This document shows positions 23,099 to 43,662 of a stretch of DNA of 64,000 nt, in pieces; within the stretch, counting starts at the first letter, position 1, and the number at the start of each line of letters is the position of its first letter. The translations under genes and the position numbers were made by a program. Under the pieces are notes generated by a model that was given only the letters and a program-made list of their open reading frames with translations, did no database searches and was not told the origin of the DNA. The stretch comes from a phage, in sequence record PZ091942.1, one strand, 5' to 3'.

Positions 23099-23122
23099 TT
23101 GGTAGTAGATATGATAACTCTC

Positions 23123-23131
23123 AAATGTATA
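23123..23131 (+). promoter_or_regulatory. AAATGTATA promoter-like motif
   Basis: Near-copy of TAATGTATA motif, 37 nt upstream of ATG 23169. Confidence 0.3.
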
Positions 23132-28331: not shown

Positions 28332-28402
28332 GGCTGGCAACTAAAGCCACCCTCTCATAATGTATACTCCTTAGTGTACACTGATATGTTAAGGAGTTGT
28401 AA

Positions 28403-32476: not shown

Positions 32477-32869
32477 ATGAAGATTGGCTTAGATTATGAC
32501 GACACTTTTACAGCGGACAAAGAGATGTGGACACATATCGTAGGACTTATGAAGTCTAGAGGTCATGATGTTCGTATCGTGACTTACCGATTCGCTGAAC
32601 CTAATGGGTACACAAACGATGAATTGCTGGCAGATGCAGCTGTTCTAGATATCCCTGTTATCTTTTGCAATGGTGTTCAGAAGGATTCTGTCACTCAGAG
32701 CTTAGGTTTCTTTGTGGATGTTTGGATTGATGACTTCCCTGTTGGTATCCCTAAAATGGACCACCTAGAAGGTATGCTGAAGGGCGTAAGGCTTAATGAC
32801 CTTAGAGCAGCACCTCCAGTAGAAATAGCCTCTCCTAAGTATTCTGAAGAGCCTTTGGTGATACGATGA
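32477..32869 (+). CDS. HAD-like phosphatase (putative)
   Basis: N-terminal IGLDYDDTFT resembles HAD motif I (DxDxT). Confidence 0.4.
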   Translation: MKIGLDYDDTFTADKEMWTHIVGLMKSRGHDVRIVTYRFAEPNGYTNDELLADAAVLDIPVIFCNGVQKDSVTQSLGFFVDVWIDDFPVGIPKMDHLEGMLKGVRLNDLRAAPPVEIASPKYSEEPLVIR

Positions 32870-33048
32870 AGAAATTCCTAATCTGGTCTATTATCATTGC
32901 TCTATTTCTTTGGGTGATGGATGCTCTTGGGGATGCTAGCAAAGAAGACTGTGAGACCCGAATCTCAAGAGAGTTTAATGCACCTACCAAGTTTGTGGGT
33001 GGTCGCTGTTATGTTGAAGGTTGGAGTCGCACCAACACTCGTTACTAA
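32866..33048 (+). CDS. small membrane/secreted protein
   Basis: Hydrophobic LIWSIIIALFLWVMDALG N-terminus. Confidence 0.4.
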   Translation: MKKFLIWSIIIALFLWVMDALGDASKEDCETRISREFNAPTKFVGGRCYVEGWSRTNTRY

Positions 33049-33056
33049 GGATTAAA

Positions 33057-33281
33057 ATGATTTACGTTCACACTTACACGATTGGAAAGAAAGTAGTTGA
33101 CCGAGTTCATACTGATGAAGCAGAAGCTCAGGCTTCTCTAGCAGTTCTAGGTGGAAAGGTTAAGAATTACGTGGAGGCTGGTAAACCAGTTAGTAGTCCA
33201 CCTGTTCTAGAGTATCTTGGAACAAACAACCCAATCACAGCAATGTCAGTCATTAACGCTAAACAAAGGGAGATCTTATAA
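33057..33281 (+). CDS. hypothetical protein
   Basis: ATG with AAGGA RBS (track start 33021 is TTG). Confidence 0.4.
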   Translation: MIYVHTYTIGKKVVDRVHTDEAEAQASLAVLGGKVKNYVEAGKPVSSPPVLEYLGTNNPITAMSVINAKQREIL

Positions 33282-33484
33282 TGTCTAATATTTACGTCGT
33301 ACAAAGCGCACCACATATTAATGACTACAAATACCAAGTGATTGCTGACCGACACGAGCTACTAACCTTTGTTGACCTTATGGCTCTGAAAGAAGAGGTT
33401 GACAAGTTGGTATCAGATGAACAATCCCGGCTCTTGCAAGAGTCTCTAAGCGGAGATTACATCTGCGATGGTTGCACTATCTAA
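33281..33484 (+). CDS. hypothetical protein
   Basis: 67-aa ORF coupled to upstream gene. Confidence 0.4.
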   Translation: MSNIYVVQSAPHINDYKYQVIADRHELLTFVDLMALKEEVDKLVSDEQSRLLQESLSGDYICDGCTI

Positions 33485-33627
33485 ACGATATAAAGTCTGG
33501 CTAGACGAAGGAGCTGAGTATCCTGATGGTTCTGGCTGGAAAGTGATTCTGGAAACAGACGACATGGAGGAGGCTGAAACGAAAGCTGAATCCTTCAACT
33601 ACTCATATTATGAGGACACATACGAGA

Positions 33628-34206
33628 ATGGCTGAAGTTTATTTTGCAGGTGATGGTCACCTAGGCCATCGTAACATCTGTAACTTTAGGAAGAAGTTTA
33701 GTAGTATTGAAGAACACGACAAAGCTATCTTAGCAGCGTTTGACCATGTTACTAAACGTGATAAAACTTTCTTTACAGGTGATTGGGTGTTTGAGAAATA
33801 TGCACTTGATATTATCGCTGAAGTAAAAGGAGAGAAGCATCTTGTCTTAGGAAATCATGACAGATTAGAACTTCTCCCTGATATGATGAAAGTCTTTAGA
33901 CACATCAGTGGTGATTATAAGTACAAAGAGTTTTGGGTAACTCATATTCCTATTCACTCTGATGAAATGAGAGGAAAGTATAATATCTATGCTCATACTC
34001 ATAACTCTACTATCAAAGATTGGAGATACTTTTGTACTTCTATGGAACAAATTGATTACAGAGCTGTGTCTCTGCAAGAGATTAGAAAAGAGTTTGATAA
34101 AAGAAAGGAAGATGAACTTAATCTTCTTACTAAACAGAGAGAATCTAATCTTCAGTTTCAGAGAGAAGTTAAGTATACTAATCTAAATCAGTTTATTGAA
34201 TGGTAA
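33628..34206 (+). CDS. calcineurin-like metallophosphoesterase (Ser/Thr phosphatase-like)
   Basis: GDGHLGH, GDWVF, GNHDR, AHTH metal-binding motifs; start at second ATG of track ORF. Confidence 0.65.
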   Translation: MAEVYFAGDGHLGHRNICNFRKKFSSIEEHDKAILAAFDHVTKRDKTFFTGDWVFEKYALDIIAEVKGEKHLVLGNHDRLELLPDMMKVFRHISGDYKYKEFWVTHIPIHSDEMRGKYNIYAHTHNSTIKDWRYFCTSMEQIDYRAVSLQEIRKEFDKRKEDELNLLTKQRESNLQFQREVKYTNLNQFIEW

Positions 34207-34415
34207 GTTAATTAGTTTTCTTTTGATTTTAATAGAGAATCAAAGTCCTAGGAGTCCTCAACCTAAATCAAGGATTTCCTTAATTCTCTATTTTTATCTC
34301 GCAGGTGTCTCCTGCCCTTCCGGTAGTCTCTCAATTTCTAACAAACTTATGAGAGGTGGTTGTCCGCGCCTTATAGTCGTCGGTCCCGTGCAATAGTTTT
34401 ACTAGCTATACCATA

Positions 34416-34424
34416 TATACATTA
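34416..34424 (-). promoter_or_regulatory. TAATGTATA promoter-like motif (minus strand)
   Basis: Exact reverse-complement copy of the motif in the 34207-34554 intergenic region; no ORF start downstream. Confidence 0.25.
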
Positions 34425-34486
34425 CTGTTTGTTATTATCTACTACCAAAAAGGTTATAGTATAATAGAACCTTATCTGTATAGGTG

Positions 34487-34495
34487 TAATGTATA
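34487..34495 (+). promoter_or_regulatory. TAATGTATA promoter-like motif
   Basis: Exact motif 59 nt upstream of SSB ATG; TATAAT at about 34460-34465 nearby. Confidence 0.35.
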
Positions 34496-34554
34496 TAGTA
34501 TACCAACCGCTCAAAGAGAGCAACAATCTTAAATTTATATAAGGAAATATTAAT

Positions 34555-35295
34555 ATGTCTATGATCCCTGAACTGTCTGTATCCCGTAAATCCAACTACG
34601 ATGTAATCCCTGATGGCGAGTACGAAGCACGCATTGTTCGTGTAGTAGGTTTAGGTGTTCACAATCGTGACCCTTGGATTGACCCTAAGACCAAAGCAGT
34701 TACTCCTAAGAACCCAGCTTTCCGTATGGACTTGGCTTTTGAACTGATTGGCGTGGATGCAACAGGGATTGATAATGAAGGCAAACCTCTGGACCCTCGT
34801 CCTGCTTGCCAGTTTAAAACTTTCGATGTAAACCCACGAGCTAAGAATTCTGGTATTCTGAATTTGATTAAAATGATCGACCCAAGTGTTCAAGCACTGA
34901 AAGGTGATTTGGGTTGGTTTAAAGATATGCTGTTAGGTCAGCCTGTTAACATTCTGGTTAACTCCTATGTAAACAAAGCTGGGGAGAAGAAAAATTCTAT
35001 TAAGAGTATTACTCCAATCCCGACCAAGTATCGTGATGCAGTAGGTGCTCCTCGTAGCGACCTTATCTTCTTCGAACCGTATGCTGAGACTGATGCTAAC
35101 TTAACCGCTTATCAAGCTATGTTCCCATTCCAACGTAACCTTCTGACCCAAGCTAATGATGCTAAGAACATTCCTCTGGCTGGTCGTGAAGTTACTCGCG
35201 CTTCTGATACTGAACAGAAAGATGCGACTCCTAGTATCCCTACTATTAATGAAGAGCCGCAGTCTACCTTTGAAGAAGATGATAGCCCTTTCTAA
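34555..35295 (+). CDS. single-stranded DNA-binding protein (putative, acidic C-terminal tail)
   Basis: AAGGAA RBS; C-terminus ...TFEEDDSPF resembles the conserved acidic SSB tail ending in Phe. Confidence 0.55.
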   Translation: MSMIPELSVSRKSNYDVIPDGEYEARIVRVVGLGVHNRDPWIDPKTKAVTPKNPAFRMDLAFELIGVDATGIDNEGKPLDPRPACQFKTFDVNPRAKNSGILNLIKMIDPSVQALKGDLGWFKDMLLGQPVNILVNSYVNKAGEKKNSIKSITPIPTKYRDAVGAPRSDLIFFEPYAETDANLTAYQAMFPFQRNLLTQANDAKNIPLAGREVTRASDTEQKDATPSIPTINEEPQSTFEEDDSPF

Positions 35296-35318
35296 TGAAT
35301 CTCTCCTTGTAATAGCTT

Positions 35319-35346
35319 AGCCACCTTCGGGTGGCTTTTTTCGTTG
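35319..35346 (+). terminator. rho-independent terminator
   Basis: AGCCACC-TTCG-GGTGGCT perfect hairpin then TTTTTTCGTT. Confidence 0.65.
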
Positions 35347-35354
35347 GGGTTAAA

Positions 35355-35702
35355 ATGGAAAAGCTTCAAAACAATATAGGTTTCTTAGTCTTTACAGCTC
35401 TGGTTTTCTTTGGTGGTATGAAGTTTGAGCAATATCGAAATGATAGTAATGCTCTTGACCAAGAGAAGAAACAGCAAGAGATAGAGATAGAGAGAGCTAA
35501 GGCTGCTGATGAAGTAGCTCAGAAAGTTCTGACTGGTTTAACTAACTGGAAGAAGAACACAGAAACTATTTACAAAGAGATGCATTATGAAAAGACTAAG
35601 CCAGTTTTTTACAATGTGTGTGCTAGCGATGAATTTGTCAGCTTGTTCAACGAGCGACAACAGCAGGCAGCTAGTGCCCTTACCAACAAACCTAAAAGCT
35701 GA
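35355..35702 (+). CDS. i-spanin (Rz-like)
   Basis: ATG after GGGG; N-terminal TM helix IGFLVFTALVFFGG then charged coiled-coil; track GTG 35331 lies inside the terminator and was rejected. Confidence 0.6.
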   Translation: MEKLQNNIGFLVFTALVFFGGMKFEQYRNDSNALDQEKKQQEIEIERAKAADEVAQKVLTGLTNWKKNTETIYKEMHYEKTKPVFYNVCASDEFVSLFNERQQQAASALTNKPKS

Positions 35703-35847
35703 ATGCGATATAGACCTCCCTTTACTTCAGAGTGGACAAGGAGTAGCATTTGCAACAACACTTGAGTGGTATCAGGATAACTACACAATCTGTGCTGCTA
35801 ACCACAATGGTTTACTTAAAGCTCTCAAAGAGAGAGGAATACAATGA
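35587..35847 (+). CDS. o-spanin (Rz1-like lipoprotein), overlapping i-spanin
   Basis: Signal peptide ending in lipobox LSAC; begins inside the i-spanin gene in another frame and extends beyond it. Confidence 0.6.
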   Translation: MKRLSQFFTMCVLAMNLSACSTSDNSRQLVPLPTNLKAECDIDLPLLQSGQGVAFATTLEWYQDNYTICAANHNGLLKALKERGIQ

Positions 35848-36068
35848 TCAGAGCAGAACTTACAATACCAGAAGGCGTTACTCAGCTTCATGCAGTATGG
35901 GAGTATAACAACCAGATTTGGGGACGAACCTTTAAGTTCTTTGTCGATGGAGATCAATCCTATTGGGCCTATTATGACTCTGAAGAGGATATGTGGATTA
36001 AAGTGAGTGGCATTCAGACAGCCATCCCTTGCCCTGAAACGGCTATGTATTTATTCTGCGTAGTTTAA
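35844..36068 (+). CDS. hypothetical protein
   Basis: ATGA-coupled 74-aa ORF. Confidence 0.45.
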   Translation: MIRAELTIPEGVTQLHAVWEYNNQIWGRTFKFFVDGDQSYWAYYDSEEDMWIKVSGIQTAIPCPETAMYLFCVV

Positions 36069-36092
36069 TGTAAAGTAAGTTAAGGATGACTT

Positions 36093-36743
36093 ATGAAGAA
36101 AAAGACAACACCTACACGCTATCGTATTCATGGCATTCCTATTAAGTATTATCCAACCTTCGATGAATTCTATCGAGAGAACTGGAAAGTTGTGCATAAG
36201 TATTTTATGTATGACATTAAAGATTATCACGAAGCAGAGGATGTTGCTCAGGAAGTGTTACTAAACGCTTGGCGTTTTGTGTTTGCAAAGCAAGAAGAAC
36301 TTCTGCTCACTGATGAAAAAGATATTGAGCACATGACTTATCGTGTCAAGAATATCATCTGGTCGATTCGTTCTAATCGCCAGACAGTTGGAGACCGACG
36401 TATCTACTCTATTCCAGAGGCTGATATGTTTAGACCTCCTGAGATGAATTCATGGGAAAGCCCTTTAGAGATTGCAATGGATAAGCATGACTCTACTGGA
36501 GACCCATTCTTGGAATCTAGAATCTTTTTCTTCTTCCAAGACTTAAGTGATATTATGGATACCAAGAAAATGGCAAGCATGTTCTCTATGCTCTTCCTTG
36601 GAATACCTCATGATCACATCCAGCAGGAGCTGGGAATTTCACACGGAACTTTCTATCGCCGTTATGCAGAGAATCGTGATCTATATGAAGCGGTAGTAGA
36701 GAAGCACTTTGATAAAGAAGATCTTCAAGGGATGATTCAATAA
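36093..36743 (+). CDS. sigma-70/ECF-family sigma factor (putative phage sigma factor)
   Basis: TTAAGGA RBS; region-2-like [13 protein letters not shown] and C-terminal [23 protein letters not shown]. Confidence 0.55.
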
Positions 36744-37339
36744 TGAGTAAACCATTAGTAGTAATTCTGAATGGACCACCGGGTTGTGGTAAAGATACAA
36801 TCGCTAATTCTTGGTTAGAGAAGACACTCGGTAACGATGAGTTTAGACCGCATGTAAAGGCTTTTAAGGAGCCTATGCATCGAGTGGCTGCTGCTGCATT
36901 AGGTCTCCCTCTTCATGAGTTCATGGAGCTGTACAACGACCGTGAGTGGAAAGAACATAACCGTCCTGAATGGGGCGGTAAGTCAGTTCGAGACTTGATG
37001 ATTGTAACTAGTGAGAGCTATCTGAAGCCTATGTTTGGTGAGACCTGCATGGGTAAACTTGCTGTTAGTAGTATTCAACAACGCATCCCATCACAGAATG
37101 ATGTTATCGTCTTCTCTGATGGTGGGTTTAAAGCAGAAGTTGAAGAACTAGAGAAGCATTTCCATGTTCGAGTAGTTCAGATTCTCCGAGATGGCTGCTC
37201 CTTTGAAGGAGATTCCCGTTCTTATATTGAAGGAACAAACCTACCAACCTACCTCCTATTTAATGACCGTTCTGTAGAAGAGGCAGTGGAGGATTTGGAG
37301 TGGATTATTGAAGGGACACGGAGAGGTCTCTATGTCTGA
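36743..37339 (+). CDS. P-loop nucleotide kinase (deoxynucleoside monophosphate kinase-like)
   Basis: Walker A GPPGCGKDT at N-terminus; size typical of dNMP kinases. Confidence 0.55.
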   Translation: MSKPLVVILNGPPGCGKDTIANSWLEKTLGNDEFRPHVKAFKEPMHRVAAAALGLPLHEFMELYNDREWKEHNRPEWGGKSVRDLMIVTSESYLKPMFGETCMGKLAVSSIQQRIPSQNDVIVFSDGGFKAEVEELEKHFHVRVVQILRDGCSFEGDSRSYIEGTNLPTYLLFNDRSVEEAVEDLEWIIEGTRRGLYV

Positions 37340-38153
37340 TGTAATCTATCCTGAAGTAGCAATTGTGGATGCAGATGTTCTACGGTATGAGGTTGGTGCT
37401 CTTACACAAGAGCATCCTTTCCTAGACACAGGTCGTGTTCCAGTTGATTATGGATTTCTGATTGAACGTCTCCAACATAAGATTGATGTAATCATCTCAA
37501 GAGCTGGTTGTGAAAGAACAATCTTTTATTTCAGCGAAGGTGGAAACTTCCGCTTCGATGTTGCCAAGCAGCAAGGTTATAAAGCTAACCGACCTCCGGG
37601 AGAAAGGCCACATCACTGGCAGAACGTTAGTGATTACATCAAAGAACATTATCAGTACGTTGAAGTGTTTGGTAGAGAAGCAGATGATGCACTCGCTGAA
37701 CGGCAGCGTATAGAGAAGAACACTATCATCTGTACTCGTGATAAAGATTTGTTAATCACTCCCGGATGGCATTATCGCTGGGCTTGTGGTGAACGACAGA
37801 AAGAAGTACCACCTCATTATGTATCAGAGGAAGTAGCATGGCAGAACTTCTTCTATCAGATGTTGATTGGGGATAGTACAGATAACATCCCCGGATGTGG
37901 TGAGAAAGTTGAAATGATGTGGGGCGGTAATTTAGTTATGCGTCGTAAGGGTATTGGTAGCAAAGCTGCTATCAAACTTATTGAGAAGGTATTCGATAAG
38001 TGGACTCTTTATCATATTATACGAATGGAATACTATAAGAGGTTCGAGGAAGAAGCAGAAGCTAAGATGTTAGAAAATGCTCGATTGCTCTTCGTTGGAC
38101 AAGCTGAAGGCGACCTGTTCGATTGGTCGTGGTTAGATAAAACTTGGGAATAA
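37332..38153 (+). CDS. 5'-3' exonuclease / flap endonuclease (T7 gp6-like)
   Basis: ATG with GAGAGG RBS (track start 37308 is TTG); IVDADVLRY, GYKANR, GDSTDNIPGCGEK, GIGSKAAIKLI. Confidence 0.8.
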   Translation: MSDVIYPEVAIVDADVLRYEVGALTQEHPFLDTGRVPVDYGFLIERLQHKIDVIISRAGCERTIFYFSEGGNFRFDVAKQQGYKANRPPGERPHHWQNVSDYIKEHYQYVEVFGREADDALAERQRIEKNTIICTRDKDLLITPGWHYRWACGERQKEVPPHYVSEEVAWQNFFYQMLIGDSTDNIPGCGEKVEMMWGGNLVMRRKGIGSKAAIKLIEKVFDKWTLYHIIRMEYYKRFEEEAEAKMLENARLLFVGQAEGDLFDWSWLDKTWE

Positions 38154-38163
38154 GGATATTATA

Positions 38164-38355
38164 ATGGGTAAATTTGACTATCGTTCGTATGATGAAAATT
38201 CCTCTAATCGTGAGTCTCGCAAAGACCAGAAGATTAAACATCAAGCATTTGATCGTCGTACTGGACGTATCCCTCGTGCTGAAAAAGAATCACATCGTAT
38301 TAACAAACGTATTTGGGAAGACGCTGATATGGATGTAGGTTATGGCGAAGGCTGA
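38164..38355 (+). CDS. small basic hypothetical protein
   Basis: 63-aa ORF. Confidence 0.4.
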   Translation: MGKFDYRSYDENSSNRESRKDQKIKHQAFDRRTGRIPRAEKESHRINKRIWEDADMDVGYGEG

Positions 38356-38746
38356 GAAAACAAGATGTTCAAACCAGTGGACTGAAGCACGTTACAATTC
38401 CTTCATCAAGTCAGGGATTCGTTCTCTGACTAGAAAGTGGAAGCCTATGTTTGATGCTCTCAAAGAAGCTCAGACAGAACGTAAGACCAACCCTAAGACT
38501 GGCAAGCTGGCAATGCACTACAAGTGTGCCATGTGTGGTAATGACTCTCCTCTTAAGGAAGTAGCTGTTGACCACATTAATCCTATTGTTCCAGTGGACC
38601 ATGAAGCATCTTGGGATGAAATCATTGAGAGAGCTTTGGTTGAGGTAGATGGCTTTCAAGTCTTGTGTAAAGAACCTTGCCATAAGATTAAAACTAAGGA
38701 AGAGAATGATGCAAGACGCGAATTTAAAAAATCTAGAGACTCCTGA
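38342..38746 (+). CDS. HNH endonuclease
   Basis: CAMCG ... VDHINPIV ... CKEPCHKIKT HNH/zinc motif. Confidence 0.6.
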   Translation: MAKAEKTRCSNQWTEARYNSFIKSGIRSLTRKWKPMFDALKEAQTERKTNPKTGKLAMHYKCAMCGNDSPLKEVAVDHINPIVPVDHEASWDEIIERALVEVDGFQVLCKEPCHKIKTKEENDARREFKKSRDS

Positions 38747-39008
38747 AGAGAAGGAAGTCTTTGAATCTATGAACAAGGAAAATACAAATGATCAAGTATC
38801 TACGACACAAACTCTTCGCTTTAGCTATCGTAATTGGAGAGGCGAAGTTGCAGACCGCTCCGTTATTCCTTTACGAACCTCAGTTGCTTCTTCCCGTTAT
38901 CATAATGGGGGCAAACCTTGTTGGATAATGACCGCTTGGGACAATGACAAGAATGACATTCGAGAGTTTAAGCTCTCTGATATTATTAAGTATTATGATT
39001 TAATCTAG
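38706..39008 (+). CDS. hypothetical protein
   Basis: In-frame ATG with AAGGAAG RBS inside track ORF 38649-39008; last plus-strand gene. Confidence 0.35.
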   Translation: MMQDANLKNLETPEEKEVFESMNKENTNDQVSTTQTLRFSYRNWRGEVADRSVIPLRTSVASSRYHNGGKPCWIMTAWDNDKNDIREFKLSDIIKYYDLI

Positions 39009-39206
39009 GAGGTCTTATGATTGACTTCGAAGAAGAAAATTGGGATGTATGATGAATTCGATGGATTCTAATAGCCTTGGGTTTTCTCTTTGTTCTAATG
39101 GTTTCTATTAAGAGCAAGGACACACCCCTACTGTATAGTAGATATGGCAAGAGAAGTGATAAAGGTTTGATATCAAAATGTCGAATCTATATCTAGAAAT
39201 AAAGAA

Positions 39207-39245
39207 GCCCCCTTCCTTTTTACAGGTTGGGGGCTTTTCTTGTTT
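39207..39245. terminator. bidirectional terminator at convergence of the two modules
   Basis: GCCCCC / GGGGGC stem with 16-nt loop; T-rich on plus side and A-rich upstream, so U-tracts on both strands. Confidence 0.5.
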
Positions 39246-42200
39246 ACTCCTTAGCTCGAACTCTAACACGGAGTTTAGCTTGACGCTTACCTCTCTCCAA
39301 CTTGTCAGACAGAGAACCACGTTTGACTTTCAACTCTCCCTCGTCATTATACTTCTCCAAGAACTGTAAATACTCTTGTCGAGTAGTTGTCTTGTAAGAA
39401 GGAATCTTAACATCAGGATTCTCTTCAATCACACGTCTAATCTTCGCTACATCATCTCGCCCTAAAAGTTTCCCTTTAGCTTGTTCAGCAGTAGAACCAA
39501 AGATTTTCTCCAGTGCTCTAGATTTGTTACCACCCGCTGAAGCAGCACCAAGTTTCGCAATAGCAGAGTAATCGTCAGCACTAAACCAAGCCACTGGATT
39601 ATCTCCATATTGTTTCTTGTTCTCCGCAGCAGTTTGTAAAGCACGCACAAAGCGACGGTTATTACCAGCTTTGTCAGCACCATGAACCCTATCTAGAACC
39701 TCCGCTACACTAGCCAGCTCCTGCAAGTCTTTCCCTTCGATAAAAGCTTTCTCTGCTTTGTTAGCAAAGTCATCTTCCTGCTTCTTAATACTTTCCAGTA
39801 TATCAGAGGAGGCTTGAGATCTTTCATCTTCCGGCAACGCCGAACGAACTTTCTCCATTTCCAACTCTTCATCCTGAAGTTTCTTCAACCCAGAATCTAC
39901 CTTCTTCGCATCTTCGATAGCTTTCGAAGTGTCTGCATCCACCTCTACCTTTCCATCCATATCACCAGTTGCCTTAGCAATATCTTTCTCGATTGGTGTC
40001 ATCTTCTCAAAATCCTTAGCAAACTTAGAGATATCAGATTCAATACGAGAGCGAGCATTCTGGTGCTCAGTAGGAGTCATGGGTTTCTCCAGAAGAGAGT
40101 AACGGTTATCCATATAAGAACCTGCAAAGATTTCTGCATCTTCCTTAGGAATGCCCTTATCCTCCATAGAACGCATCAGGCGCTTGTGAATGTCATCACG
40201 TTGACGTTGTACTGCCATACGATCATTCTCTGCTTCCTGAGCTTCCTTGAGCTTCTTATCACGCTGTACACGAGAGTCAATGTCGAATTTACGGTTCATC
40301 TCTTCCGCTTGCTCATACATCTTATTCCACTTAGCTTCACGAGCATCTTCTTCCGCTTCAGTGAGTCGACGTTTACGGTCGATGTAATCACTCTCTGCGT
40401 TGTGGATACGTTCAATGATACTACGGAAACGCTCTGGTGGTACAGGAGAGTTCTTCTCATGGTGAGCTGCTAACTGTTTCAGCGTACGACCTTCCTGAGC
40501 TTCACGTACTGACTCTGGCAGATCTTTCATCAGTTTCTCCATCTCCGATTTCTGAGCCGCTATAGCTTCGAGAGACTGCCTTTCTGTCTCTACCGCTGCC
40601 TTGGCATCACTACGAGCCTTAGCCCTGTTACGGAGCGTATCAAGACGTTCCTGACGTGCTTGCAGGTGTTTAGCTGCTGCTTCGTACTGAGAGTTCTTAT
40701 TAGCTTTGTTGAACATGTTAACTTCACGGTTATAGGTGTTGATAAAGCCATCCCATATATCCTTCATCTGTCCCACTTCCAAAGCATCTTCCCTTCCAGC
40801 CCTCTCTGAAGCTTTAAACTTCCCATCTACAAAATCTTCCATCATCTTACGCATAGCATCTTTCTGAGCTGGACGTAATGGCTCTGCATCAAGAAGTGTA
40901 TTGATTTCACTGTGTAACTCTTTCTTCTGGTCAACCAGTTTAGGGGCATCAGCTTTGTCAATCTTCTTATTCTCTGCAAGAGCTTCCTCATACAGCTTGT
41001 TAAATTCATCATCACGTTGTTTCTGATACAGACGTTCAGACCTACGCTTCAGTGAATCCAAACTAGTCACGTTCCCACCAATACCTTTCTCCTCAGCACG
41101 TAATGCCTTGGTAGCAATATCAGAAGGCAGACCACGTTCCTTAACCCAATCAGCAAACGAAGAACGAACACGTTGTGACTTAGCAGCAGCAATACCCTGT
41201 TGAGAAGCAAGCTGGTTACGAGCCATCTCAGCATGACGTTCAGAGTTGTTCGCTTGGTCTTCCTGACGAATACGACGCATCAACTCTTTCGGGTCACCTT
41301 TATAAGAAAGGAAGTTCTCAGCTGTAGCTTTAGCCTTCGCACTTGCCGTATACAGAGAACGAGCAAAGCGATCTGCACGGTCTTTAGTAGCTTGACGAGC
41401 AGCACTTGACATAGCAGCCAGACGTTCGATTCCAGTAGCCGGTTTAACAGGCTCAGCCTCAACCTCAGGAGCTTTAGGAGCACGGGTAGGCAATGGCTCT
41501 GCTTGAACAGTTGGCTCCTCAGGGGCGCTCTCAGCAGCCTTGCTGGCCTCTTCTGCTTCTTGACGTTTACGAGCTTCTGAAACAGCACGACGTTGAGCAA
41601 CTAAATCTCTCGCTGTAGTAACTGGTTCTTGTGGCTCTGGCTCGGGAGTTGGCTCTTCCTGAATCTTACTAGCTTCGGCTTCCTGACGTCTAGCTTGAGC
41701 TTCCTTCAAAGCACGTCTTTGTGCGACCAAATCACGAGCAGTTAAAGGAGAGGTTTGAGGAGAGGAAATTTCTTCCGTCACAGTAGTAGCAGAAGGCTCC
41801 CGAACCGGTTCGATTTCCGGGTCATTTTGAGTTCTAAATTTAATGTCATCAACTTCAGGTTCTTTCTCCATCGCAGCACGAGCTTCATCAGCCTGAGCAC
41901 GAGCACGAGTTACTTCCATATCACTACGAGCAAGAGAACGAATAGCTTCGCTGTTAGCCGCCTGTTGACCTTCACGTTGAGAGCGAGCACGGTCAGAACG
42001 GAAACGGTTGAGAACATGTTTAGCAGCACCAAGTGGATTCTTAATCAGAACCGGAGGAGCAGCTTCTTTGAAACCGTCAGCAGTTAGAGAGGTCCAACCA
42101 CGGTCTTGGTTACTCATTAACTTAGCTGTGTTATTCAGAGTGAAAGCATCTTGGATTGGGTTGAAACCTTCAGGCATACCTTTGAGTTTCTTCAAACCAC

Positions 42201-43662
42201 CAATAGCAGTTTTCATCTCTGGAGATACATTATCAGAAAGCTTCTGTAGTTCAGTAGCTTTCTCAATGAAGTTATTGAAGTCTTCACCATCACGAGCTTT
42301 GAATCGGTTAGCTTCATTATAGAAAGTTTTGTAAGCATCAATGAAGTCACGGTCAGCTTGAGTACGGTTCTTAATATCCATAGCACTACCGGTAAAGTCA
42401 CCACTAGCACGAGCAGATGTTAATTCACGGTCAAGATTATCTAGTACGTCAGATAGAGACTTAGTGTTGTCTTTCGTATAGTCAGCCATTGCATCTTTCA
42501 TTGCTACAGCTTGTTTCTGGTTATGTTCGTTATCAGCGTTCGCTTTACCTTGACGCTTATTAGGAGCAGCAAGAGGATTCAAACCCGGAACATTAGAACG
42601 ATCTTCCAGAATAGTAGCAGCCTTCTCAGCACGACCTTGGTCAGTGTTCAGGATACGCTGAGCAGCAGGAGAATCCATAGCCACAGCATCAGTAACACGG
42701 AAACCATTCTCGTCCAGAAGGTTAAGGGCAGAAGCAGTGTTAGCATTGTCAGCTTTAGAATACGCTTCACGTAATTCATCAGCATTAGTAGCACTACGTA
42801 TCGCTTCATCTTCAGCAGCAATATCTGTCTTCACATGATCAGGAGTACGGTCAAAGACTTGAGGACTAGGACGACTTATCAATCCATGAACCCCACCGAT
42901 AGCCCCACCGTAAGCAGCACCCATCGCACCTTCTTCTACAGCACCTTCAATAATATTAGCAAGAGTAGTGTCATCACTATATTTGTTCTGTGCTTCAGCA
43001 GCACCTACAAGAGCACCACCTTTAGCACCAGCCACTGCGTTAGATGCTACACTCTGACCAACACGACCTAGAGTAGTAGAAGCAGTGCCTGTCATCCCCG
43101 GAAGAATCTTCTGAGCTGCAAAGTTAGCACCACCAACTAAACCAGCATCAAGAACAGACTTCTCTTCACCCTCTTCTGGAGTTTGGTCTGCATAAGCTCT
43201 ACCTGTCTCACGAGCTGCAATAACAGCAGCAGCTACAGCAGGGTTAGCAACTGTCAAACCGATATCAGCAGCGACACCAGCATACTGACCAGCTGACTTC
43301 CCAATCCCATCTTCAATCTTAGAGAGACGTTCTTCTAATAAATTCTTAGAGTTCTCTTGAATACGCTTACCATAGCTTGTCTGTGAACTAGTTAGATTCT
43401 CTCCAATCTCAACTAATCCACCAATACCTCTAGCAGCACTAGCTGCAATATTAGCACCACCTGATTGAATAGCATTGGACACACCTTGAGCAAAGTCACC
43501 AATTAATCCCGGTTGTTCTTCTTGTTTCAGAGCTGGAGCCGCCTCAGGAATTGTTCCACCTGCTGCTTTATATTGTTCTCGCATCTGAGACTGTTGCTCA
43601 GGGGAGGCATTCAAATACGCAGGGCTTTTAGAAGCTTCTTCCCACGGTTTTAAGTTAGCCAT
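39244..43662 (-). CDS. large virion protein (1472 aa; internal/ejection or tape-measure-like, function unassigned)
   Basis: AAGGAG RBS and TAATGTATA motif upstream; Gly/Ala-rich N-terminal segments then very long charged coiled-coil. Confidence 0.6.
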   Translation of the reverse strand: MANLKPWEEASKSPAYLNASPEQQSQMREQYKAAGGTIPEAAPALKQEEQPGLIGDFAQGVSNAIQSGGANIAASAARGIGGLVEIGENLTSSQTSYGKRIQENSKNLLEERLSKIEDGIGKSAGQYAGVAADIGLTVANPAVAAAVIAARETGRAYADQTPEEGEEKSVLDAGLVGGANFAAQKILPGMTGTASTTLGRVGQSVASNAVAGAKGGALVGAAEAQNKYSDDTTLANIIEGAVEEGAMGAAYGGAIGGVHGLISRPSPQVFDRTPDHVKTDIAAEDEAIRSATNADELREAYSKADNANTASALNLLDENGFRVTDAVAMDSPAAQRILNTDQGRAEKAATILEDRSNVPGLNPLAAPNKRQGKANADNEHNQKQAVAMKDAMADYTKDNTKSLSDVLDNLDRELTSARASGDFTGSAMDIKNRTQADRDFIDAYKTFYNEANRFKARDGEDFNNFIEKATELQKLSDNVSPEMKTAIGGLKKLKGMPEGFNPIQDAFTLNNTAKLMSNQDRGWTSLTADGFKEAAPPVLIKNPLGAAKHVLNRFRSDRARSQREGQQAANSEAIRSLARSDMEVTRARAQADEARAAMEKEPEVDDIKFRTQNDPEIEPVREPSATTVTEEISSPQTSPLTARDLVAQRRALKEAQARRQEAEASKIQEEPTPEPEPQEPVTTARDLVAQRRAVSEARKRQEAEEASKAAESAPEEPTVQAEPLPTRAPKAPEVEAEPVKPATGIERLAAMSSAARQATKDRADRFARSLYTASAKAKATAENFLSYKGDPKELMRRIRQEDQANNSERHAEMARNQLASQQGIAAAKSQRVRSSFADWVKERGLPSDIATKALRAEEKGIGGNVTSLDSLKRRSERLYQKQRDDEFNKLYEEALAENKKIDKADAPKLVDQKKELHSEINTLLDAEPLRPAQKDAMRKMMEDFVDGKFKASERAGREDALEVGQMKDIWDGFINTYNREVNMFNKANKNSQYEAAAKHLQARQERLDTLRNRAKARSDAKAAVETERQSLEAIAAQKSEMEKLMKDLPESVREAQEGRTLKQLAAHHEKNSPVPPERFRSIIERIHNAESDYIDRKRRLTEAEEDAREAKWNKMYEQAEEMNRKFDIDSRVQRDKKLKEAQEAENDRMAVQRQRDDIHKRLMRSMEDKGIPKEDAEIFAGSYMDNRYSLLEKPMTPTEHQNARSRIESDISKFAKDFEKMTPIEKDIAKATGDMDGKVEVDADTSKAIEDAKKVDSGLKKLQDEELEMEKVRSALPEDERSQASSDILESIKKQEDDFANKAEKAFIEGKDLQELASVAEVLDRVHGADKAGNNRRFVRALQTAAENKKQYGDNPVAWFSADDYSAIAKLGAASAGGNKSRALEKIFGSTAEQAKGKLLGRDDVAKIRRVIEENPDVKIPSYKTTTRQEYLQFLEKYNDEGELKVKRGSLSDKLERGKRQAKLRVRVRAKE

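Follow-up and report, generated by a model that had tools for sequence, protein, structure and literature searches.

Assignment of a phage gene to the gp36-type alternative sigma factors of phiEco32-like podoviruses

A gene for a 216-residue protein in a 64-kb stretch of phage DNA (hereafter the window) can be assigned with high confidence to the alternative sigma factors of the phiEco32 gp36 type, divergent two-domain sigma factors with the architecture of the ECF (group IV) class. Judged by sequence comparison, it is the orthologue of phiEco32 gp36 and a sigma factor of the phage's own. The gene is already known, as it has been annotated, biochemically characterized and structurally solved in close relatives. 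The finding adds no new biology, since the RefSeq record of phage ECBP2 already labels the same protein sequence as a sigma factor. For annotation, the sigma gene is identified here together with its partner and promoters in the window, which offers an explanation of how a phage without an RNA polymerase (RNAP) of its own times middle and late expression. By orthology with gp36, the protein is expected to bind RNAP and to support promoter-specific transcription.

The sigma factor gene and its relatives

The sequence of the window identifies it as that of a phiEco32-like podovirus (Gordonclarkvirinae, Suseptimavirus). A megablast search with positions 34000–40000 returned 99 phage records, nearly all from Escherichia phages of the Gordonclarkvirinae. 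The best match was ECBP2 (Suseptimavirus), with 96.3% DNA identity over 100% of the query. The 216-residue open reading frame (ORF) proposed by an earlier sequence-only reading is intact, starting with an ATG at 36093 and ending with a stop codon at 36743. The AAGGA ribosome-binding site in front of it lies at a place equivalent to an annotated ribosome-binding site of phage SU7 (Table 1). The protein shares its entire sequence (100%) with ECBP2_0031, labeled 'RNA polymerase sigma factor' in RefSeq, and is 97–99% identical to the products of SU7, TH42 and related phages. Its phiEco32 counterpart is phi32_36 (gp36, ABY52837), annotated 'RNA polymerase ECF sigma factor', with which it shares 175 of 214 positions (~81%) in a global alignment. 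Compared to gp36, the window protein has a two-residue insertion in the inter-domain linker. It also matches PHROG 1740, 'RNA polymerase sigma factor' (E = 8.8e-45), and, over residues 1–215, chain F of PDB 9m7y (E = 2e-119).

The stop codon of the sigma gene and the start codon of the gene that follows share 1 nt (TAATG), which suggests translational coupling of the two genes. A decayed or non-functional copy, kept by chance, is extremely improbable given an intact ORF with a ribosome-binding site and a coupled downstream gene, homologues that are at least 80% identical in all 99 related phage records, and 41 invariant alignment columns, functional residues included, among homologues down to 43% identity.

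Table 1. Positions in the window of the sigma factor gene, its partner gene and the gp36-type promoters.
Feature	Position	Strand	Remarks
Sigma factor gene, 216 aa	36093..36743	+	Orthologue of phiEco32 gp36 (by sequence comparison); identical to ECBP2_0031
Ribosome-binding site AAGGA	36082..36086	+	6 nt before the ATG of the sigma gene; SU7 RBS annotation
gp79 orthologue, 80 aa	16393..16635	+	tblastn 77.5% identity, E = 6e-41; PHROG 8339, E = 5e-50
Middle promoter, phiEco32 P68 / ECBP2 P66	23101..23131	+	GGTA at -37..-34; aAATGTATA at -15..-7; predicted TSS ~23138
Middle promoter, phiEco32 P58 / ECBP2 P54	28336..28366	+	GGCA at -37..-34; TAATGTATA; predicted TSS ~28373
Promoter, phiEco32 P40 / ECBP2 P35	34465..34495	+	TAATGTATA; predicted TSS ~34502
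Late promoter, phiEco32 P26 / ECBP2 P24	43699..43729	-	TAATGTATA; AAGACCTA at -37..-30; predicted TSS ~43692
Late promoter, phiEco32 P13 / ECBP2 P11	60559..60589	-	TAATGTATT; AAGACCTA at -37..-30; predicted TSS ~60552
Orphan antisense gp36-type promoter (candidate)	34416..34446	-	Exact TAATGTATA with P68-type -35 element TGGTAGTAGATA

Membership in the sigma-70 family

The protein falls below the thresholds of the standard sigma models. The Pfam Sigma70_r2 model gives 19.2 bits where 24 are required, NCBIfam TIGR02937 gives 21.1 where 42.9 are required, and the Sigma70_r4 and r4_2 models have no match in the window protein. Profile searches for the two sigma-70 regions, proposed earlier as a check, thus recover region 2 below its cutoff and leave region 4 unmatched. 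The lack of any sigma-domain match, which the sequence-only reading had named as evidence against itself, is narrowly avoided at the Pfam level and clearly overturned by a fold search and an exhaustive profile search. All 20 family members searched reach Sigma70_r2 at E<0.1 (best E = 1.9e-5), and for one of the family, P0020, a PF04542 (Sigma70_r2) domain is on record as precomputed. Region 4 is nearly invisible to sequence models, with 2 of 20 members at E<0.1. A family profile, run against 1.84 billion representatives, matched proteins at E-values between 5e-7 and 8e-4. Sigma70_r2 is present in eight of the top ten matches checked, and most of those checked also have r4_2 and Sigma70_ECF, in each case above or near the curated cutoffs. 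Most of these alignments are confined to query residues ~20–62; longer ones, to bona fide ECF sigma factors, cover residues 23–196 (P0029) and 22–162 (P0031).

The fold and profile searches place the window protein among the ECF (group IV) sigma factors, with a two-domain sigma2 and sigma4 fold and neither sigma1.1 nor sigma3. Domain limits were transferred from gp36 (PMC12276001), with an offset of +2 after residue 118, and define a sigma2-like domain (residues ~1–103), a sigma3.2-like linker (~104–139) and a sigma4-like domain (~140–216). No cognate anti-sigma factor was recognized adjoining the sigma gene; such a partner is typical of the ECF group, not strictly defining. An ordinary helix-turn-helix (HTH) DNA-binding regulator, TetR-like or other, which would not replace a sigma factor, has next to no probability. 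Matches to such regulators span only the generic HTH, whereas over its full length the protein matches one whose structure shows it at the place of sigma on RNAP. In addition, each of the 20 family members has a match to sigma region 2 in its N-terminal domain, and the residues contacting the clamp helices and the flap-tip helix are kept. The protein is a useful case of a genuine sigma factor that goes undetected by the standard Pfam and NCBIfam sigma models when their curated cutoffs are applied.

Conservation of functional residues

We compared the 23 gp36 residues that are named in the 9m7y work as contacts to the clamp helices, the -10 and -35 regions, the flap-tip helix and gp79. All are identical in the window protein, except for a conservative replacement of M138 by leucine, and 20 homologues, down to 43% identity, show little or no variation at most of them. 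The five contacts to the β' clamp helices (D44, E47, E49, D50 and E54) are all identical to those of gp36, and D44, E47 and D50 are invariant across the sigma family. The eight -10 contacts (E79, H80, Y83, R84, W90, S91, S94 and N95) are likewise unchanged, as are the -35 contacts Y186 and R187 of gp36, which correspond to Y188 and R189 in the window, and the groove that receives gp79 (F146, M164, L167 and I169 in gp36). The segment that had been described as region-2-like comprises residues 48–60 and lies in the helix whose acidic residues bind the clamp helices. That description holds, with the refinement that -10 recognition is carried out by residues 79–95 and not by this segment. The C-terminal HTH noted at the same time corresponds to residues 176–195 and holds the -35 readers Y188 and R189.

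Substitutions relative to gp36 are concentrated at residues 20–29, 68–78 and 115–135. The two phages belong to different genera and 19% of the positions differ (39 of 214), so a functional sigma factor with a promoter specificity unlike that of gp36 was considered. The two-residue linker insertion speaks for it, as do distant family members in which the base contact H80 is changed to asparagine, including one such clade without the motif upstream of the gene-40 homologue. Nevertheless, we consider a changed specificity very unlikely, as every reported -10 and -35 base-contact residue is identical to that of gp36 and the phiEco32 consensus is found at syntenic positions; the P68-type promoter of the window (site 23123) is identical to phiEco32 P68 from -38 to -7.

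The replacement of H80, which contacts -11G, by asparagine was seen in the distant homologues P0012–P0014, P0016, P0017 and P0020. Contigs of one clade with this change (L006 and L007; sigma factor ~55% identical) retain, of the promoter set, only the AATGTA motif of the P58-equivalent site, and their synteny is kept. The combination of H80 replacement and motif loss hints that promoter specificity has drifted among the members of the family.

The gp79 orthologue

A small partner protein, not mentioned in the sequence-only reading, is encoded ~20 kb away from the sigma gene. The ORF of this gp79 orthologue lies directly downstream of an ATP-grasp gene, as in phiEco32 (Table 1). The 13 named contact residues are all either kept or replaced by similar ones; residues L6, L9, V10 and M14 of gp79 are I, L, I and M in the window protein. 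In phiEco32, gp79 inhibits the sigma70- and sigmaS-holoenzymes and stimulates the gp36-holoenzyme 3–4 fold. By analogy, its orthologue may displace the host sigma70 and stabilize the phage sigma factor on RNAP.

gp36-type promoters

The gp36-type consensus is tAATGTAtA, with the start site 6–8 bp downstream (PMC8948821). The promoter register was taken from the structure, with A at -34 and G at -37. Only the exact nonamer and a rule that includes the -35 register discriminate promoters from chance. The exact nonamer TAATGTATA was found four times versus 0.55 expected, a count reached in none of 100 shuffles. A scan that allowed one mismatch to it showed no enrichment (23 found, 18.2 expected), and the bare AATGTA hexamer occurs at chance frequency (40 found, 43.8 expected). 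The rule, which combines T or A at -15 with AATGTAT and A at -34, narrows the 40 hexamer sites down to 7, with six in intergenic DNA and five located 27–67 nt upstream of a co-oriented gene start.

Five intergenic sites in the window, each upstream of co-oriented middle or late genes (23123, 28358 and 34487 on the plus strand, 43699 and 60559 on the minus strand) correspond to the ECBP2 promoters P66, P54, P35, P24 and P11 (PMC8948821 Table S3); the sixth published ECBP2 promoter, P4, falls past the window end. The P68-type promoter is intergenic, 27 nt upstream of a co-oriented ATG. The P40-type promoter precedes a 246-aa gene (34555..35295), and SU7 has an annotated promoter at the equivalent place. 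The P26-type promoter precedes the gene of a 1472-aa virion protein. According to the literature, all phages of the phiEco32 subgroup, ECBP2 explicitly, have the sigma factor, gp79 and the promoters (PMC8948821), and the same set is stated for SU10 (PMC4281155).

Both late promoters share AAGACCTA at -37 to -30, and the middle promoters at 23101–23131 and 28336–28366 have GG(T/C)A at -37 to -34, with A(-34) common to all. It is possible that this difference is the sequence basis for the middle and late promoter classes.

Genomic context and transcription of the sigma gene

The sigma gene is preceded by Rz-like spanin genes and a 74-aa ORF (35844..36068), and followed by genes for a dNMP kinase, a 5'-3' exonuclease, a 63-aa ORF and an HNH endonuclease, after which comes the convergent gene of the 1472-aa late protein. 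The DNA-processing genes expected next to the sigma gene are thus present. The earlier statement that the window encodes no phage RNAP also agrees with our data: the nine largest ORFs (at least 480 aa) have no RNA-polymerase Pfam domain, and the ECBP2 genome annotation lists no phage RNAP.

A strong intrinsic terminator (35319–35336, plus strand; AGCCACC-TTCG-GGTGGCT followed by TTTTTT) is located directly downstream of the gene-40 homologue. It separates the P40-type promoter from the spanin genes and the sigma gene that follow, so that the promoter used for the sigma gene in Suseptimavirus becomes a point in question. As an autoregulatory gp36 promoter, we considered TAATGTAAA at 36066–36074 (plus strand), which lies 19 nt upstream of the sigma ATG, overlaps the stop codon of the 74-aa ORF and is kept in SU7 and ECBP2. 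It was rejected, as it has neither A(-34) nor G(-37) and is absent from phiEco32. It is probably a non-functional chance occurrence, although a weak autoregulatory promoter specific to the genus is possible. A consensus scan of 33500–39600 for sigma70-type promoters gave 19 sites versus 13.3 ± 3.9 expected; nothing convincing was found for the sigma gene, the best site having 9 of 12 matches.

The second gene of the Rz-like spanin pair (35331..35702 and 35587..35847, plus strand) is embedded in, and overlaps, the first. The pair is part of the middle module, at a large distance from the genes for holin and endolysin; in ECBP2, these two belong to the late module. In ECBP2, an additional HNH endonuclease gene, ECBP2_0029, is present between the dNMP kinase and exonuclease genes (32657–33100 of that genome). 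The window has no equivalent, and the two genes overlap directly (37339 / 37308 junction); the difference looks like a presence/absence polymorphism of a homing endonuclease. The 1472-aa late protein (39244..43662, minus strand) is the product of the first gene after the P24/P26-type promoter and has no Pfam domain, and its ECBP2 label, 'putative liver stage antigen', is uninformative.

The phiEco32 system and the proposed mechanism

The gp36/gp79 system was reportedly discovered in 2008 by Savalia and dissected in 2012 by Pavlova. It was dissected again in 2022, and a cryo-EM study followed in 2025 (PMC8948821, PMC12276001). In phiEco32, sigma70-RNAP transcribes the early genes and gp36-RNAP the middle and late ones, whose promoters have a common AATGTA centered at -11.5. 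The gp36 protein was found bound to host RNAP in phiEco32-infected cells; in vitro, it directs RNAP to the middle and late promoters of the phage (PMC12276001, PMC8948821). PDB 9m7y is a cryo-EM open complex of gp36 with E. coli RNAP, promoter and the co-factor gp79 (NAR 2025; PMC12276001). In this structure, the N-terminal domain of gp36 (residues 1–103) is located on the clamp helices like sigma2, the long linker passes through the cleft like sigma3.2, and the C-terminal domain (138–214) is located on the flap-tip helix like sigma4 (PMC12276001).

The mechanism outlined here for the window is derived by orthology from phiEco32; the orthology itself, residue conservation, fold, partner, and presence and placement of promoters were computed in this work. 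Host sigma70-RNAP would transcribe the early region, including the gene of the gp79 orthologue, and the sigma gene would be reached by read-through. The gp79 orthologue would then bind outside the RNAP clamp, its N-terminal helix entering the RNA exit channel and evicting sigma70 region 4, such that host and early transcription would be shut off. Next, the phage sigma factor would bind core RNAP, with its N-terminal domain on the β' clamp helices (via D44, E47, E49, D50 and E54), its linker passing through the active-site cleft like sigma3.2, and its C-terminal domain on the β flap-tip helix. This holoenzyme is expected to recognize tAATGTAtA at -15 to -7, where W90 and Y83 would stack at the fork junction and E79, H80, S91, S94 and N95 would read bases, and Y188 and R189 would contact the -35 region. 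The N-terminus of the gp79 orthologue may re-dock on the C-terminal domain of the sigma factor (F148, M166, L169 and I171), stabilizing the open complex. The likely targets in the window are the three plus-strand promoters of the middle module (23123, 28358 and 34487) and the two minus-strand promoters of the late module (43699 and 60559). The suggestion of the sequence-only reading that the protein could direct host RNAP to middle and late promoters is supported by its orthology with gp36.

Comparison with other phage and bacterial sigma factors

Phage sigma factors of the gp36 type, including phiEco32 gp36 and its orthologues ECBP2_0031, SU10 gp32 and that of NJ01, share with the window protein their length class, functional residues and gp79 partner. 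The gene order is also the same, with the sigma gene followed by the dNMP kinase, exonuclease and HNH genes and then the convergent giant late gene, and tAATGTAtA promoters are found at the same genome positions in phiEco32 and the window. The upstream neighbor differs: where phiEco32 has the macro-domain gene gp37, the window has a 74-aa ORF.

Salmonella phage 7-11 gp47 (SaPh711_gp47) and Cronobacter phage GAP52 gp73 are sigma factors of phiEco32-like podoviruses with C3 morphotype, encoded at an equivalent genome position. The 7-11 gp47-type sigma factor binds the core RNAP of E. coli and drives transcription from late promoters (PMC8948821). However, the 7-11 and GAP52 proteins are only ~15% identical to gp36 and use a bipartite GTAAtg-N16-aCTA promoter, and phages of this type have no gp79 homologue, middle class or host shut-off (PMC8948821). 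The window is clearly a member of the gp36 branch, not of the 7-11 branch.

Sequence identity to bacterial ECF sigma factors (for example M. tuberculosis SigE, SigH and SigL, E. coli sigmaE and B. subtilis SigW) is 11–21%. Compared to ECF factors, gp36 has a first helix turned by ~70 degrees, a shorter sigma4-like recognition helix and a different groove for the flap-tip helix (PMC12276001). Typical ECF promoters do not resemble the gp36-type -10 element AATGTA, and regulation is by the phage activator gp79, which is also a sigma70 inhibitor, in contrast to the cognate anti-sigma factors of the ECF group.

A candidate antisense promoter in a conserved intergenic region

The remaining exact nonamer is located back-to-back with the P40-type promoter, on the opposite strand (Table 1). 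No minus-strand gene lies downstream of this orphan site. Its -35 element TGGTAGTAGATA is otherwise found in the window only at the P68-type promoter, and the composite TAATGTATA+TGGTAGTAGATA element occurs exactly twice per contig, on opposite strands, in phiEco32, ECBP2, NJ01 and KBNP1711 (IMG/VR). The site is absent from the published promoter table (PMC8948821 Table S3) and may be new, although it may have been reported earlier in the 2012 transcription study. The distant clade represented by L006 and L007, in which only the P58-equivalent motif is kept, is uninformative in this regard.

It is conceivable, though on balance doubtful, that the sigma factor uses this site, besides the six published targets, to produce an antisense or non-coding transcript that is conserved and unannotated. 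If so, the antisense transcript would extend into the upstream plus-strand genes, where it might, for example, curb their read-through or act as a regulatory RNA. An Rfam scan of 33000–40000 at E<=1 gave no match. The site lies in a 350-nt intergenic region whose conservation among phiEco32, SU7 and the window exceeds that of most coding sequence, and a 210-nt minus-strand RNA from the block at 34207–34410 has a folding z of -3.3. This highly conserved block lies between a phosphoesterase gene and the gene-40 homologue, and its plus strand resembles a terminator, with a T-run after a long hairpin (ATAGAGAAT...ATTCTCTAT).
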